Shown here piece by piece: positions 25,968-29,914 of a DNA stretch of 29,942 nucleotides; the first letter of the stretch is position 1; each line of letters opens with the position of its first letter. Made by a program: the position numbers and the translations under genes. The notes under the pieces are model-generated. The model did not search any database. It had not been told where the DNA came from and saw nothing but the letters and a program-made list of their open reading frames with translations. The stretch comes from Candidatus Bathyarchaeia archaeon. GTDB lineage: Archaea > Thermoproteota > Bathyarchaeia > Bathyarchaeales > Bathycorpusculaceae. Where the stretch lies: NCBI GenBank assembly GCA_037481775.1, contig JBBFKZ010000018.1, positions 1 to 29,942 of the forward strand. Direction: 5' to 3'.

Positions 25968-26684
25968 TCAATCTCGTTTCATTGCTTCTGCCTTAAGCTC
26001 TTTTGGCATAAGTTCAATAGCGTAGCGTAATGCTGTTCGCGGCATCCACGCCTTGTTTTTCAGCACATAGTTTAAGACTTCTTTTTGATGCCGTCTGCTT
26101 GCTTCTTTTAGAAGCCAACCATAACCTTTCTGAACCATGTCATCCTCGTCTTTCAGGAGCATATCGGTTATTTCGAAAACCTCGCTGAGAAACTCGCCTT
26201 TCCTAGCGGGAAGTATAAGCGACACTGCAGCAGCCCTTCTAAGCCAACGGTTACTTGACTTAGCCCACTTTTTCAATTCGCTAACAGCCTCAGGATGTTT
26301 CTGTATTAAGCCGCCAACAGTGTGATTGCAAAAGCTGTCACATTTAGCCCAGTTATTAACGTACTTTTCAATCCAGCCCTCAAAAACTGCCAAATCACTT
26401 GGCGCAAGCACCTCAACCAGAGACGGCAGCCAATAACAAACTACCGCTGCCTCTTCGGTATAATCAGAGCGCAACAGATCTTCACAAAGCGAGAAAATCT
26501 TTCCCTTATCGAAGGTTCTAACTTCTCTCCAATACTTCTTCGCTATCTTGCGAACCACATCTGCTTTCACACCGTAACAGGTAATTTCTTCTTTGAAGAA
26601 ACGCTGAAAACTACGTTGAGTTTGCTCATCCGCAAGTGACCTCAGTTCTTTCCTAATTTCCTCAACAAGCTGGTGCATAATCAC
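25968..26684 (-). CDS. DNA alkylation repair protein (AlkD-like HEAT-repeat glycosylase)
   Basis: RFFKE..YGV, NNWAKCD, W..SSNRWLRRAA, DMVQKGYGWLLKE, MPRTALRYAIE. Confidence 0.92.
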   Translation of the reverse strand: MIMHQLVEEIRKELRSLADEQTQRSFQRFFKEEITCYGVKADVVRKIAKKYWREVRTFDKGKIFSLCEDLLRSDYTEEAAVVCYWLPSLVEVLAPSDLAVFEGWIEKYVNNWAKCDSFCNHTVGGLIQKHPEAVSELKKWAKSSNRWLRRAAAVSLILPARKGEFLSEVFEITDMLLKDEDDMVQKGYGWLLKEASRRHQKEVLNYVLKNKAWMPRTALRYAIELMPKELKAEAMKRD

Positions 26685-26761
26685 CGTATACGCGCATGCA
26701 GAAAAATAACACTTTCCTCTAGAAAAAGAGAAACAAACAACAAAAAATGGGAAAGAGGAAC

Positions 26762-27049
26762 CTACGGCGTCTCCATCTGGTAAAGATCGAGATCCAACTC
26801 GAGCTTTAACGGCTTTTCCCGCACACCATTCTCTAAATCATATATGCTTGCCAGAACTTTCTCCAGCCCGCTCTGCGTAATCTTCTGAACCACGGCAACC
26901 GCTGATCTAGCCGCATCCTCAGAGCTAGCACCGCAGACAGCCAACGCACTTTGATCCAACAACTCCGTCGAGCCACCCTTCAGTTTATATGCTTCTTCTA
27001 GACCAATCGGACATTTCACTGCGATCTCTTCAGGCAAATGCTTAGTCAA
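26762..27049 (-). CDS. Truncated FtsZ-like protein (C-terminal subdomain fragment plus tail only; no GTPase domain)
   Basis: TTG at 27049 overlaps the cdrS stop. Segment LEEAYKLKGGSTELLDQSALAVCGASSEDAARSAVAVVQKIT aligns by eye without gaps to the FtsZ H10-S9-S10 pattern (LEEA-x10-LD-xx-A-xxx-WGA-x9-VxV-xxx-IT). No GGGTG(T/S)G motif. Confidence 0.6.
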   Translation of the reverse strand: MTKHLPEEIAVKCPIGLEEAYKLKGGSTELLDQSALAVCGASSEDAARSAVAVVQKITQSGLEKVLASIYDLENGVREKPLKLELDLDLYQMETP

Positions 27050-27197
27050 CGCCTTTCCTCCGCCAAACCTCAGCACTAATCAAATCACGGATAGCAACAC
27101 GTATGGCCTCAGCTCTATTGGGGTAGAATCTTTCATCCACCAGCTGATCCAAAGCTTTTATATAAGTTTCAGGAAGATATAGCGTGATTAGCTTCAT
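27042..27197 (-). CDS. cdrS: Ribbon-helix-helix transcription factor, CdrS-like
   Basis: MKLITLYLPETYIKALDQLVDERFYPNRAEAIRVAIRDLI; the (Y/F)PNRxEAIR signature of the archaeal cell-division regulator CdrS. GGGAGAGG RBS before the ATG at 27197. Confidence 0.8.
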   Translation of the reverse strand: MKLITLYLPETYIKALDQLVDERFYPNRAEAIRVAIRDLISAEVWRRKGVD

Positions 27198-27405
27198 TGT
27201 TTTCCTCTCCCGTTGGTGGAGTATCAAAGCGTGTTTTTGCGTTATACTTCTATATATTATGTATTAAATATGTTTTAATCATGTTCGTTCCCTACTTTAT
27301 AAGCATTTAACAATGTATGTTGCAGTTTCATGTAAATTCCGCTCCAAAGAAACCCCTATGTTTTTATTTATTATTAAAGCATCTAATGTAATGCGATGTG
27401 AAGCT

Positions 27406-28692
27406 ATGCGTGTTTTCGTAAAAAGCTATGGATGCGCGGCGAATTTAGCTGACGGGGAAGTTTTAGCAGGCTGCTTAGCGAAAGCAAGATACAAACTAGC
27501 ACAGTCCGCCGCAGAGGCAGACGTGGTGATTTACAATACCTGCGCGGTTAAAGCGCCTACAGAGAACCGTATGATCGAAGTTTTAAAGCGCGTTCCACCT
27601 GAGAAAAAGTTGATTGTCGCAGGTTGTTTGCCGCTTATCAATTTCGAAAGGTTACAGCGTGAAGTGCGTTTTGATGGTGTTGTTGGACCCGCCGCGGGCA
27701 GAAAAATCGTCGAGGCTGTAAAACGCGTTTCAGAAGGCAGAAAAATCATCATGTTAACCGACGCGACAGAGGCTATGCCATCGCTGGATCTTCCAAGATT
27801 GAAAGCAAACAGCGTAACAAGCATTCTGCCGGTTAATTATGGATGTTTAGGCATGTGCGCTTATTGCTGTGTTGTCTTTGCAAGAGGCCGCTTGAGGAGT
27901 TACCCAATTGCCAAGCTTGTCGAGAAAGTGCAGCAGGATGTGGCTGCTGGCATGAAAGAGCTCTGGATTACATCGCAAGATGCAGCGTGCTACGGAAGAG
28001 ACATCAACACGAATCTTGCAGCGTTGCTTAAAGCGATATGCAATGTAGATGGTGATTTTCGGGTTCGCGTTGGCATGATGACGCCGAACAGGGCTGCTGA
28101 CATCTTAGACGAGTTAATTGAGGCTTTTGAAACTCCTAAAATTTTCAAGTTTGTGCATCTGCCCGTGCAAAGCGGTGATAACGACGTTTTACAGCGAATG
28201 TGCCGCTTTTACAGCGTCCAAGATTTTAAAGAGGTAGTCGCGGCTTTTAGAGCCGCTTTCCCCGAGATTACCTTTGCGACAGATGTTATATGCGGTTTTC
28301 CAGGCGAAACACGCGAGGCCTTTGAAAACACGCTTAAGCTGATTAATGAAATAAAACCTGATATAGTTAATGTATCAAAGTTTTTTCCTAGACCACGAAC
28401 AACAGCCGCTGCAATGCAAGATGATTTTGTGGATTTAGCGGAAATTAAACGGAGAAGCACGGAAGTAACGAAGCTGGTTAAGCAAATCTCGCTGGCGAGA
28501 AACCAAAATTGGATCGGCTGGGCTGGCGAGGTTCTCATTGACGAGAAGGGGAAAGCGCCCAGCTCGTGGATAGGTAGGAACTTCGCTTATAAACCCGTGG
28601 TCGTTAAAAGCGCAGAAAACCTGCTTGGCAAAATGCTACAAGTTAAAATTGTAAAGGCCTTCCCCACGTACCTTGTTGGAAAAATTGAGTAA
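27406..28692 (+). CDS. tRNA t6A37 methylthiotransferase (archaeal MtaB/CDKAL1 type, MiaB-like)
   Basis: SYGC, NTCAVK and VAGC (UPF0004 domain), GCLGMCAYC radical SAM motif, HLPVQSG, GFPGET, C-terminal TRAM domain. ATG at 27406 (MRVFVKSYGC) is the likely start. Confidence 0.92.
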   Translation: MRVFVKSYGCAANLADGEVLAGCLAKARYKLAQSAAEADVVIYNTCAVKAPTENRMIEVLKRVPPEKKLIVAGCLPLINFERLQREVRFDGVVGPAAGRKIVEAVKRVSEGRKIIMLTDATEAMPSLDLPRLKANSVTSILPVNYGCLGMCAYCCVVFARGRLRSYPIAKLVEKVQQDVAAGMKELWITSQDAACYGRDINTNLAALLKAICNVDGDFRVRVGMMTPNRAADILDELIEAFETPKIFKFVHLPVQSGDNDVLQRMCRFYSVQDFKEVVAAFRAAFPEITFATDVICGFPGETREAFENTLKLINEIKPDIVNVSKFFPRPRTTAAAMQDDFVDLAEIKRRSTEVTKLVKQISLARNQNWIGWAGEVLIDEKGKAPSSWIGRNFAYKPVVVKSAENLLGKMLQVKIVKAFPTYLVGKIE

Positions 28693-28849
28693 AGACGCGG
28701 CCTGTGATTGACGCTTAACCAAACTTTAAATCGTTAAAGCTTCTCCAAGAAATGTGAGTAATCAACGATAATTTCTTTTCATTTTATGCAATGTATTTAT
28801 GTTTCACTTTAAAGTTACTTATCTCAACCAAAAAGGAACGGAAAGCAGA

Positions 28850-29914
28850 ATGACCGGCAAAGACGCAGTTACAATGTTGCATGGCGCTGGCGGCACAGTC
28901 ATGCACAAGCTAGTTAATGATTATATTGTAAAGTACTTCAGCGGCTTGGGCAACGCTGAGGTTCCGCTCGAGGCCTTAGATGACGCAGCAGTCATCGGCG
29001 ATGTCGTGCTAAAAAGTGACTCGCACGCGGTTAAGCCCATCTTCTTCCCAGGAGGCGACATCGGCCGCTTAGCGGTCTCCGGCACTGTAAACGATATTTC
29101 GTGCTTAGGCGCTGAGCCTTACGCTTTGGCATGCGGTTTGATTTTGGAGGAAGGCTTGCCGCTTTCCGACTTAGAAAGGATATTGGCAAGCATGCGGCAA
29201 ACATGCGTCGAAGCAAACGTTGGCATAGTAACAGGCGACACAAAAGTTGTCGAAAAGGGCAGTTTAGGCGGCTGCATCATGAATGTTTCAGGTATAGGCA
29301 GAAGAACCAAAGCGCTTGAGAACAACCTTGAAGTGGTCAAGCAGCACCGCAGCGGCTTCACGGCGCGATGGACGCTGGACTCCAACCTAAGCGTTGGCGA
29401 CAAGATAATTTTGTCTGGAACCATAGGCGATCACGGCTTGTCTGTGCTCTCAGCGCAGCAAGGGCTAACTTTTGGAAGCGAGATAAAAAGCGACGTTAAA
29501 CCCTTAAACCGACTTATTCAGCGTATGCTCGGCGAAGTCGGCGGTGTTGTCGCCATGAAAGATCCCACAAGAGGCGGTTTGGCAGACGCTCTAAATGAGC
29601 TCAGTGAAAAATCAAAGAAGGGCATACTAATTTACGAAGAAAAAATTCCGGTGAGAAATGATGTGCGTGCTGCTTGTGAAATGCTGGGTTTAGACCCGCT
29701 TGAAGTTGGAAATGAAGGAAAAATGATTATAGGCGTGGTGCCCGCGAAGGCGGAGCAGGCGCTGGAGTTTCTGAAGAAAACTGAGGAAGGCAGAAACGCG
29801 GAAATCATCGGCGAAGCCACAAGGGACTTCACAGGTGTGGCCATGCAAACTGTTGTCGGCGGCAAAAGGATAATCACGAGACCAGTAGGCGATCCGGTGC
29901 CGAGAATCTGCTGA
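28850..29914 (+). CDS. hypE: Hydrogenase maturation carbamoyl dehydratase HypE
   Basis: HGAGG, DSH.VKPIFFPGGDIG.LAV.GTVND, VTGDTKVV, DPTRGG, NEG, terminal PRIC. ATG at 28850 is the likely start. Confidence 0.96.
   Translation: MTGKDAVTMLHGAGGTVMHKLVNDYIVKYFSGLGNAEVPLEALDDAAVIGDVVLKSDSHAVKPIFFPGGDIGRLAVSGTVNDISCLGAEPYALACGLILEEGLPLSDLERILASMRQTCVEANVGIVTGDTKVVEKGSLGGCIMNVSGIGRRTKALENNLEVVKQHRSGFTARWTLDSNLSVGDKIILSGTIGDHGLSVLSAQQGLTFGSEIKSDVKPLNRLIQRMLGEVGGVVAMKDPTRGGLADALNELSEKSKKGILIYEEKIPVRNDVRAACEMLGLDPLEVGNEGKMIIGVVPAKAEQALEFLKKTEEGRNAEIIGEATRDFTGVAMQTVVGGKRIITRPVGDPVPRIC

Follow-up and report, generated by a model that had tools for sequence, protein, structure and literature searches.

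The window analyzed here is a stretch of 29,942 nucleotides (nt) from a Candidatus Bathyarchaeia archaeon (contig JBBFKZ010000018.1 of assembly GCA_037481775.1, positions 1 to 29,942 of the forward strand), and its minus strand carries a gene for a small CdrS-like ribbon-helix-helix (RHH) protein that overlaps a 95-codon open reading frame (ORF), designated mini-ftsZ here. Judged by profile and sequence alignment, mini-ftsZ is an ftsZ gene from which about 267 residues have been removed in frame, with the GTPase domain, the T7 loop, and half of the C-terminal domain gone; the parts that appear to have been kept are an N-terminal peptide, a remnant of helix H10 and strands S9-S10, and a C-terminal tail of about 41 residues. 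We propose, with a probability of roughly 60%, that mini-FtsZ is a CdrS-coupled ligand of SepF that outlived FtsZ polymerization, its binding to SepF being predicted. The proposal draws on computed results for gene structure, descent from FtsZ, the deletion, purifying selection, the size of the clade, the retention of SepF, predicted disorder, and a docking model.

The span from 26762 to 27197 consists of exactly cdrS and mini-ftsZ. The frame downstream of cdrS is open from 27076 to 26762, and the DNA at the junction reads G-TTG-ACT-AA. A preliminary description of this DNA had noted a cdrS-like RHH gene whose stop codon overlaps the TTG start of an open 95-amino-acid (aa) ORF, and both the coordinates and the RHH match bear this out; the overlap stood, and the start itself was corrected from 27050 to 27049. 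The same description called TTG starts common in the window, as indeed they are: the aIF6, eS19, prefoldin, and FtsY ORFs all begin with TTG, and each matches its Pfam profile nearly end to end. Homologues of mini-FtsZ in public records (two records) were called from the same start, and most matches among protein cluster representatives begin at profile position 10. A GG(A/C)GG Shine-Dalgarno stretch is common to loci with long and with short forms of ftsZ. Reading from the GTG at 27076 yields a conserved VLRFGGGKAL, which is the Shine-Dalgarno sequence plus the cdrS C terminus out of frame; hence the conserved GGG that precedes the true start in translation is a Shine-Dalgarno sequence read out of frame.

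The CdrS-like protein passes the Pfam RHH_1 threshold with 31.6 bits (cutoff, 20.5) over residues 4 to 40 of 51 and contains a single RHH domain. Its top NCBIfam match is the haloarchaeal CdrS model NF058555 (E value, 4.1e-11), with a score of 42.7 bits that falls below the cutoff of 100 set for a model built on haloarchaea. According to the accessible text of PMC7439475, the cdrS-ftsZ2 unit of Halobacterium and Haloferax has a small RHH gene, cdrS, directly upstream of and co-oriented with ftsZ2, with synteny across archaea, including Bathyarchaeota. As far as that text goes, the locus in the window is of the same type as the cdrS-ftsZ2 operon, and the mini gene would descend from its ftsZ, keeping start and tail. 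Genes downstream of cdrS in relatives, which the preliminary description had wished to see surveyed, were a long or a short ftsZ, with a near-identical CdrS directly upstream, at 15 of 17 loci (14 distinct places; 2 loci were without flank, and L014 and L027 represent the same place). At 15 of the 17 loci, in long and short forms alike, the start overlapped the cdrS stop with the sequence TTG(A/G)CTAA. On these alignments, the coupling of cdrS to ftsZ appears to be ancestral and common to full-length and short forms. The locus is not an assembly artifact, a possibility raised at the outset: single contigs from three other studies span positions 26400 to 27500 with 2, 5, and 13 differences and no indel or joint. 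Six of the differences among those contigs fall inside mini-ftsZ, four of them synonymous and two conservative.

The relationship to FtsZ becomes visible through the full-length proteins of the lineage itself. A large protein collection yielded 22 candidates, 18 of which were homologues of 97 to 108 aa. A profile, A1, built from short forms only matched 50 of 61 related genomes. The whole profile was matched in one short frame in 13 of the 61 (12 frames of 103 to 116 aa and 1 cut by a contig end), and in another 33 only positions 22/24 to 103 were matched, at the extreme end of a frame of 360 to 399 aa. In most of these genomes the long frames score 150 to 172 bits on Pfam Tubulin and are therefore full-length FtsZ; scores were 59 to 89 bits in two genomes (G008 and G059), and in a third (G051) there was no Tubulin match. 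The remaining matches were one long form cut by a contig end and three other short frames, each set in its own genome or genomes (one and three, respectively). When A1 was aligned by hhalign to 15 full-length FtsZ proteins of relatives, residues 22 to 104 of the mini form corresponded to residues 300 to 388 of 390 (probability, 99.1%; E value, 1.5e-18). For reference, Pfam places Tubulin at residues 40 to 199 and FtsZ_C at residues 247 to 340 of one 381-aa long form. The first ~14 residues of the mini form (LTK....E.ALK) match the long-form start, L(T/A)K....(E/Q)HALKY.W. Taken together, the hhalign result, the same cdrS-overlapping TTG start, and the same tail argue for common descent with FtsZ at an orthologous locus. 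The gap-free likeness to the end of archaeal FtsZ that the preliminary description had reported was upheld against the real FtsZ of relatives, as was its reading of the ORF as the product of an in-frame deletion of the GTPase domain and T7 loop that spared the frame, the cdrS coupling, and a SepF-type tail.

The part between the two conserved ends seems to have lost its structure. The GTPase signature (G1 box, GGGTG(T/S)G) is absent from the mini-FtsZ sequence. Compared with the FtsZ_C domain (S7-S10, H9-H10), only the last ~48 positions persist, diverged and disordered, so that mini-FtsZ fails as a member of that domain family. The H10-S10 stretch is near-invariant in long forms (MTIEEANRVGEIVTEMMD..ALVIWGARVNPE..GKLKVTLVMTGV); the short forms diverge here, with the invariant W changed to C. 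This stretch was probably released from constraint and decayed after the deletion. AlphaFold2 (AF2) modeling of mini-FtsZ from 38 sequences gave a mean predicted local distance difference test (pLDDT) score of 56 and a predicted template modeling (pTM) score of 0.18, with a sole helix at residues 61 to 69 and pLDDT values below 50 at residues 29 to 53, and the protein is predicted to be disordered. Relative to archaeal FtsZ (about 370 to 380 aa), the 95-aa mini-FtsZ is without the GTPase domain, the T7 loop, and a foldable C-terminal domain and so cannot form filaments. In functional terms, it does not belong to the FtsZ family but represents a novel version of the FtsZ-SepF system.

Reductions of other kinds lie behind cdrS in three genomes outside the clade of short forms, with different junctions and with the same overlap and tail. 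In G019, a 69-aa product has the N-terminal peptide fused directly to linker and tail; in G016, which falls among long-form genomes on the EF-2 tree considered below, the product is ~95 aa and the junction lies within H10; and in G044, from another family, a 65-aa product starts at a GTG overlapping the stop codon of cdrS. Tubulin matches are absent from all three genomes, each of which has SepF. Moreover, three genomes (G008, locus L016; G051, locus L113; G059, locus L115) carry a full-length, cdrS-linked FtsZ whose GTP-binding motifs are destroyed but whose FtsZ_C domain and tail are intact. The G008 protein scores just 57 bits on Tubulin, the G059 protein has GDETGTE in place of GGGTGTG, and the G051 protein has no Tubulin match but scores 66 bits on FtsZ_C. 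These proteins look like GTPase-dead intermediates. As far as can be read from these genes, the engine has been lost repeatedly and in graded steps across the order, but never the tail. The N-terminal half of the G051 protein is also oddly rich in T, N, and P.

Several lines of evidence indicate that mini-ftsZ is a real, conserved gene under purifying selection and not a neutral relic. An even sample of 401 genomes of the order yielded 348 matches. Within genus g17, 96 of 101 species genomes matched, and 89 had a full, uninterrupted frame of 99 to 132 aa. Among 1.84 billion cluster representatives, there were 140 profile matches, 133 of them to proteins of no more than 151 aa and 7 to proteins of at least 331 aa. 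An alignment of 110 members (median identity to the window copy, 32%) showed two conserved ends, MTKH..DE..LK and LYDLE...PEK.L.IDL..DLYQME.Y, around a variable middle; codons 1 to 3 are additionally constrained by the overlap with the cdrS stop. Pairwise Nei-Gojobori dN/dS values among six genomes of the genus were 0.14 to 0.28 (0.10 to 0.43 for the tail alone), and between genera dS was saturated while the tail remained alike.

A pseudogene on its way out after a switch to Cdv division would be expected to look different, and we consider that explanation extremely improbable. It could appeal to the loss of the GTPase, to a visibly decaying FtsZ paralogue in the genus (FtsZ-B, described below), and to the few g17 copies that are interrupted. 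However, the frame is open in 89 of 101 g17 species and in all 13 genomes of the first-sampled clade, dN/dS is well below 1 and dS is saturated, the variants among strains are four synonymous and two conservative changes, and the same outcome arose convergently in other lineages. The preliminary description had posed a relic and a retained peptide as alternatives; a retained functional peptide is favored over a neutral relic by dN/dS, a single old origin, spread over about a hundred species, and convergent deletions. It is also conceivable that the ORF is kept for the sake of cdrS, with translation through the downstream frame stabilizing or regulating the cdrS message and the peptide being irrelevant. 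Such a role would fit the strict conservation of the overlap and the Shine-Dalgarno sequence, the free variation in the middle of the protein, and an almost invariant CdrS. It gives no account, however, of residue conservation 60 to 90 codons downstream (DLYQME is conserved in at least 90% of the 110 members), of the low dN/dS of the tail, or of four independent deletions that all spared the tail, and we regard it as very improbable.

Loss of the FtsZ GTPase in this lineage, which the preliminary description had suspected, is real. In the window's own genome, which is 96.7% complete, the single Tubulin match is a tail-less paralogue, FtsZ-B (contig 15), ending in VVTGVESAFLKKQEKRLGPIKLW. Its frame (L001, G000:C15:28912-32304, 1489-2376) is without the first ~82 codons of an intact copy, the G1 box included. 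Homology with the intact G005 copy (374 aa) sets in at L001:1498, directly behind and overlapping an unrelated 162-aa helix-turn-helix ORF (TrmB-like by eye), and the first in-frame ATG, GTG, or TTG is at 1804; the first ~82 codons found no counterpart in the genome's own DNA. Copies in G001 (a 251-aa frame) and G002 (a 153-aa fragment) are worse damaged, and FtsZ-B appears to be decaying within the genus. Searched against the window's genome, a long FtsZ found only the contig 15 paralogue and mini-ftsZ (residues 286 to 369; 40% identity; E value, 0.0011), which indicates that the GTPase part is not encoded elsewhere. A split gene, with the missing GTPase part located elsewhere in the genome, was also considered, and no such part was found. 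Across the 101 genomes of g17, no canonical cdrS-type FtsZ was found; no Tubulin match exceeded 131 bits, and all such matches were of the tail-less FtsZ-B type, which is present in 22 of the 101 genomes.

These searches bear on the suggestion, made in the preliminary description, that the peptide is an MciZ-like inhibitor or a SepF-titrating decoy. A free tail might titrate SepF away from FtsZ filaments, or cap FtsZ as MciZ does, and so delay division under the control of CdrS. The tail is indeed predicted to sit in the FtsZ-binding pockets of SepF, and gene order points to coexpression with a division regulator. Neither the window's own genome nor those of g17, however, hold a tail-bearing FtsZ with which it could compete, and what is left of the polymer interface has decayed and is disordered; a decoy or inhibitor is therefore quite unlikely.

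SepF is retained. It is present in 56 of the 61 related genomes and in 12 of the 13 short-form genomes, the exception being 85% complete. The SepF of the window's genome is a 124-aa protein with a TTG start and the N terminus LPSIGLFRKPKK, and its core is 80% identical per column across 20 genomes. The accessible text of PMC8178401 reports SepF as absent in archaea wherever FtsZ is absent; in contrast with the survey given there, this clade retains SepF without an FtsZ GTPase. The genome search proposed in the preliminary description accordingly returned SepF and CdvABC and no intact FtsZ GTPase. The same source presents a Methanobrevibacter smithii crystal structure in which the short acidic/hydrophobic tail of FtsZ docks on the SepF dimer by extending a beta-sheet. 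We predicted a complex of the SepF core dimer with tail residues 58 to 95, which scored 0.82, compared with 0.07 for the best of three controls; 58 of 80 solved complexes and 2 of 110 mismatched pairs attain that mark. Custom alignments were used, runs agreed in at least 83% of contacts, and the pLDDT score of the partner was at least 70. In the model, residues 70 to 72 of motif 1 (Y70-D-L) contact residues 63 to 65 of SepF copy 2 (the ARL of DIARLGEE), with an expected error of ~1 Å, and residues 89 to 92 of motif 2 (L89-Y-Q-M) contact residues 62 to 66 of SepF copy 1 on the same strand. The tail is thus modeled as a bivalent clamp, one tail per SepF dimer. As far as the published M. smithii complex can be compared from the accessible text of PMC8178401, the model uses the equivalent SepF strand; it differs in that the tail is a free-standing gene product and in that two motifs are modeled on both protomers at once.

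Residues of the modeled SepF interface have a majority frequency of 0.97 in short-form genomes, compared with 0.84 for the rest of the core. At 96% of positions, short-form and long-form genomes have an identical interface consensus; a single switch, from C to Y in the short-form genomes, occurs at residue 52: this core residue is Y in 8 of 10 short-form genomes (T and H in the others) and C in 9 of 10 long-form genomes (S in the tenth), giving NELYEF and NELCEF, respectively. The change may have accompanied the change to mini-FtsZ. In three short-form genomes, sepF lies 3 to 8 kb from mini-ftsZ, and in the window's genome, the two genes are on separate contigs (C2 and C18, respectively); ftsZ and sepF are seldom close together in archaea (Pende et al.).

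The window's genome also encodes a Cdv set. A cluster on contig 2 (G000:C2:139259-141735) comprises Snf7-like, CdvA, Snf7/CdvB, and MIT-domain Vps4/CdvC-like (397-aa frame) genes, with two to three Snf7 genes in the cluster; a second CdvA-like gene (356-aa frame) is on C5, and a stand-alone PRC-barrel gene is on C2. Accessible parts of PMC9723716 and PMC11188069 note Bathyarchaeia with FtsZ, noncanonical FtsZ-like proteins, and extra CdvA-like proteins. This inventory, with CdvA found in 61 of 61 relatives, raises the possibility that mini-FtsZ is an adaptor whose tail holds SepF and whose N-terminal peptide (MTKH..DE..LK) holds a second partner, such as a PRC-barrel protein or CdvA, ESCRT-III, or FtsZ-B, thereby tying SepF to Cdv. 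Two conserved ends set apart by a variable linker would suit such a protein, the N-terminal peptide is conserved also in the full-length FtsZ of the order (W25 is invariant in alignment A4), and PRC-barrel proteins form a complex with SepF in Haloferax, according to the accessible text of PMC11188069. However, the overlap with the cdrS stop dictates codons 1 to 3, so that conservation of the N terminus is in part unrelated to the protein; moreover, the invariant W of the long forms is lost in the short forms, the N terminus differs in G044, and FtsZ-B is present in few of the g17 genomes. We consider an adaptor unlikely.

Several observations weigh against the view that mini-FtsZ is a SepF ligand descended from FtsZ. 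The ORF alone matched no Pfam family at E values up to 10, FtsZ_C (PF12327) included, and NCBIfam and phmmer searches of Protein Data Bank (PDB) sequences with it returned no FtsZ. The preliminary description had proposed a comparison with FtsZ_C and held that the lack of any FtsZ profile hit would remove the claim; the FtsZ_C comparison gave no match, and the refuting condition proved too narrow because the homology is visible only via the lineage's own FtsZ. The core of the tail reads (N/K)(I/L)(D/E)L, KLELDL in this copy, so that the archaeal GID, as given in the accessible text of PMC8178401, is only loosely kept. The passing score of the modeled complex may reflect likeness to the solved M. 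smithii SepF-FtsZ(CTD) complex described there (CTD, C-terminal domain) rather than binding by this copy. In an EF-2 tree built from 40 rows, all 13 short-form genomes group together as a single clade (SH-aLRT support, 98; the trait requires one change) with long-form genomes as neighbors, but this is a tree of one gene with paralogues, its rows were picked by score and coordinates, the group is defined by the trait itself, and 21 of the 61 genomes are absent from it. Finally, 7 of the 96 matching g17 genomes carry partial or broken copies: the G421 copy contains a TGA, those of G377 and G326 are split, and the remainder are short or lie at contig ends. G377, G326, and G421 look truly interrupted, and mini-ftsZ may be dispensable in some g17 species. 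Weak matches of the ORF to TATA-binding protein (E values, 0.11 to 1.4) and to coiled-coil adhesins were taken as chance. Among 24 runs, no RNA run containing this stretch was found.

With these points in mind, we favor the following course of events for a CdrS-coupled SepF ligand. In an ancestor of this Bathyarchaeia clade, a cdrS-coupled ftsZ would have lost about 800 bp in frame, and with them the whole GTPase domain, the T7 loop, and the first half of the C-terminal domain. The H10-S9-S10 remnant would then have decayed into a variable, disordered linker, the N-terminal ~14 residues and the full tail staying in place. Translation from the ancestral TTG that overlaps the cdrS stop, behind GGAGG, would presumably yield a product made together with CdrS. 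Two like motifs on the tail, (I/L)YDLE and LYQME, about 17 residues apart, would each lie along the DIARLGEE strand and in the pocket of one SepF protomer, such that one tail clamps one dimer in the model. Mini-FtsZ itself would be incapable of polymerization or GTP hydrolysis and would serve, under CdrS, as a ligand or cofactor of SepF that holds it in an “FtsZ-bound” state or tunes its membrane binding and self-association. SepF activity would probably no longer depend on FtsZ filaments, and constriction would probably be left to the complete CdvABC/ESCRT-III set.

Coordinates of the cdrS/mini-ftsZ locus, its parts and signals, neighboring genes, and sepF/mini-ftsZ pairs in related genomes
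Feature	Position	Strand	Description
cdrS-like RHH gene	27042..27197	minus	51 aa; ATG start; TAA stop, 27044..27042; protein MKLITLYLPETY...RRKGVD
mini-ftsZ	26762..27049	minus	95 codons plus TAG stop; TTG start (27049..27047) overlaps cdrS TAA
Shine-Dalgarno GGAGG of mini-ftsZ	27057..27061	minus	Inside cdrS 3' end, 7 nt before TTG
N-terminal peptide, codons 1-14 (MTKHLPEEIAVKCP)	27008..27049	minus	Homologous to first residues of full-length FtsZ, by alignment
Putative decayed remnant of FtsZ helix H10 and strands S9-S10, codons 15-57	26879..27007	minus	From hhalign and alignment; variable, predicted disordered
FtsZ C-terminal tail, codons 58-95	26765..26878	minus	Best conserved part
Tail motif 1, I69-Y-D-L-E73	26831..26845	minus	LYDLE conserved in family alignment
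Tail motif 2, L89-Y-Q-M-E93	26771..26785	minus	DLYQME at least 90% conserved in 110 members
T-rich tract (..CCCATTTTTTGTTGTTTGTTTCTCTTTTTC..)	26720..26761	minus	Directly after mini-ftsZ stop; candidate archaeal oligo-T terminator of the cdrS/mini-ftsZ unit, read by eye
AT-rich divergent intergenic region, cdrS/MiaB-like gene	27198..27312		TATA-like TAATATATAG ~55 nt upstream of cdrS ATG, read by eye
DNA alkylation repair protein (PF08713)	25968-26684	minus	Neighbor
MiaB/CDKAL1-type radical-SAM methylthiotransferase	27313-28692	plus	Neighbor, divergent from cdrS
AIR-synthase-related (HypE/SelD-like) protein	28799-29914	plus	Neighbor
sepF and mini-ftsZ, proximity	G018:C1 822842 vs 825985; G005:C33 338433 vs 344890; G001:C8 45130 vs 37117		Three short-form genomes

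None of the three neighbors of the gene pair is division related. A scan for bacterial-type sigma-70 promoters and hairpin terminators, which is ill suited to archaea, gave nothing above shuffled sequences. Elsewhere in the order, proteins of ~890 to 910 aa combine an N-terminal Tubulin_2-like GTPase (PF13809, 37.6 bits; GLGSAG and GGGTGSG) with a long coiled-coil remainder; they occur in many short-form genomes, namely G007 (L068, C16), G015, G021 (L069, C11), G027, and most g17 genomes with weak Tubulin matches, and the gene often adjoins a second weak tubulin-like gene of 390 to 500 aa. These proteins could be a replacement cytoskeleton. In the window's genome, no such replacement tubulin was found with the ~890- to 900-aa protein of G007 as the query. 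Many genomes of the order have two or three aEF-2 paralogues, some of them adjacent and divergent (G030:C13 and G017:C15), and the window's genome has two aEF-2 genes, on C29 and C24.

Other organisms also possess small or degenerate proteins that target the FtsZ system without being polymerizing FtsZ themselves. MciZ of Bacillus subtilis targets FtsZ itself, and ARC3 of plastids keeps an FtsZ-like fold in a domain without GTPase activity; both need a resident FtsZ. Neither of them is a free tail of the kind predicted here to bind SepF, and MciZ is not known to be related to mini-FtsZ in sequence. FtsZ1 and FtsZ3 of Agrobacterium are not known to carry the linker and tail. In the accessible text of PMC13732431, these Hyphomicrobiales proteins are likewise shortened FtsZ derivatives that have long been kept and are thought to tune division. 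As described there, they are defined by the GTPase domain and stand beside an essential full FtsZ, and in this they are the mirror image of the present case: mini-FtsZ retains only the tail and has replaced the FtsZ of its locus. A literature search, whose coverage extended neither to subscription journals nor to supplementary tables in PMC8178401 and PMC7439475, turned up no report of an FtsZ tail without GTPase that exists as a protein of its own. For genome annotation, the locus carries a warning in that such genomes look “FtsZ negative, SepF positive” by Pfam, whereas what is left of FtsZ function would reside in a “hypothetical protein” of 95 aa.

No division protein is more widely conserved than FtsZ, which is taken to function by GTP-driven polymerization, its tail being seen as no more than a handle that anchors grip. 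In the species-rich archaeal clade described here, SepF and the tail “handle” have been retained without the polymer, and other lineages of the order have independently done the same. This suggests that the tail of FtsZ has a job of its own. If the tail binds SepF, then SepF has a role that is independent of FtsZ filaments and that needs this ligand, and the group offers natural intermediates of the FtsZ-to-ESCRT switch, which so far has been approached only via tables of presence and absence. More tentatively, and with less than even odds in our estimation, the FtsZ tail and SepF may form a module whose function is independent of FtsZ filaments and that was handed to, or works beside, Cdv/ESCRT-III. 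If so, the series from full-length through GTPase-dead FtsZ to mini-FtsZ would be a living record of a swap of division engines in which the motor goes first and the tail stays, and the fact that lineages arrived at the same tail repeatedly and independently would single out occupancy of SepF by this peptide as the selected function.

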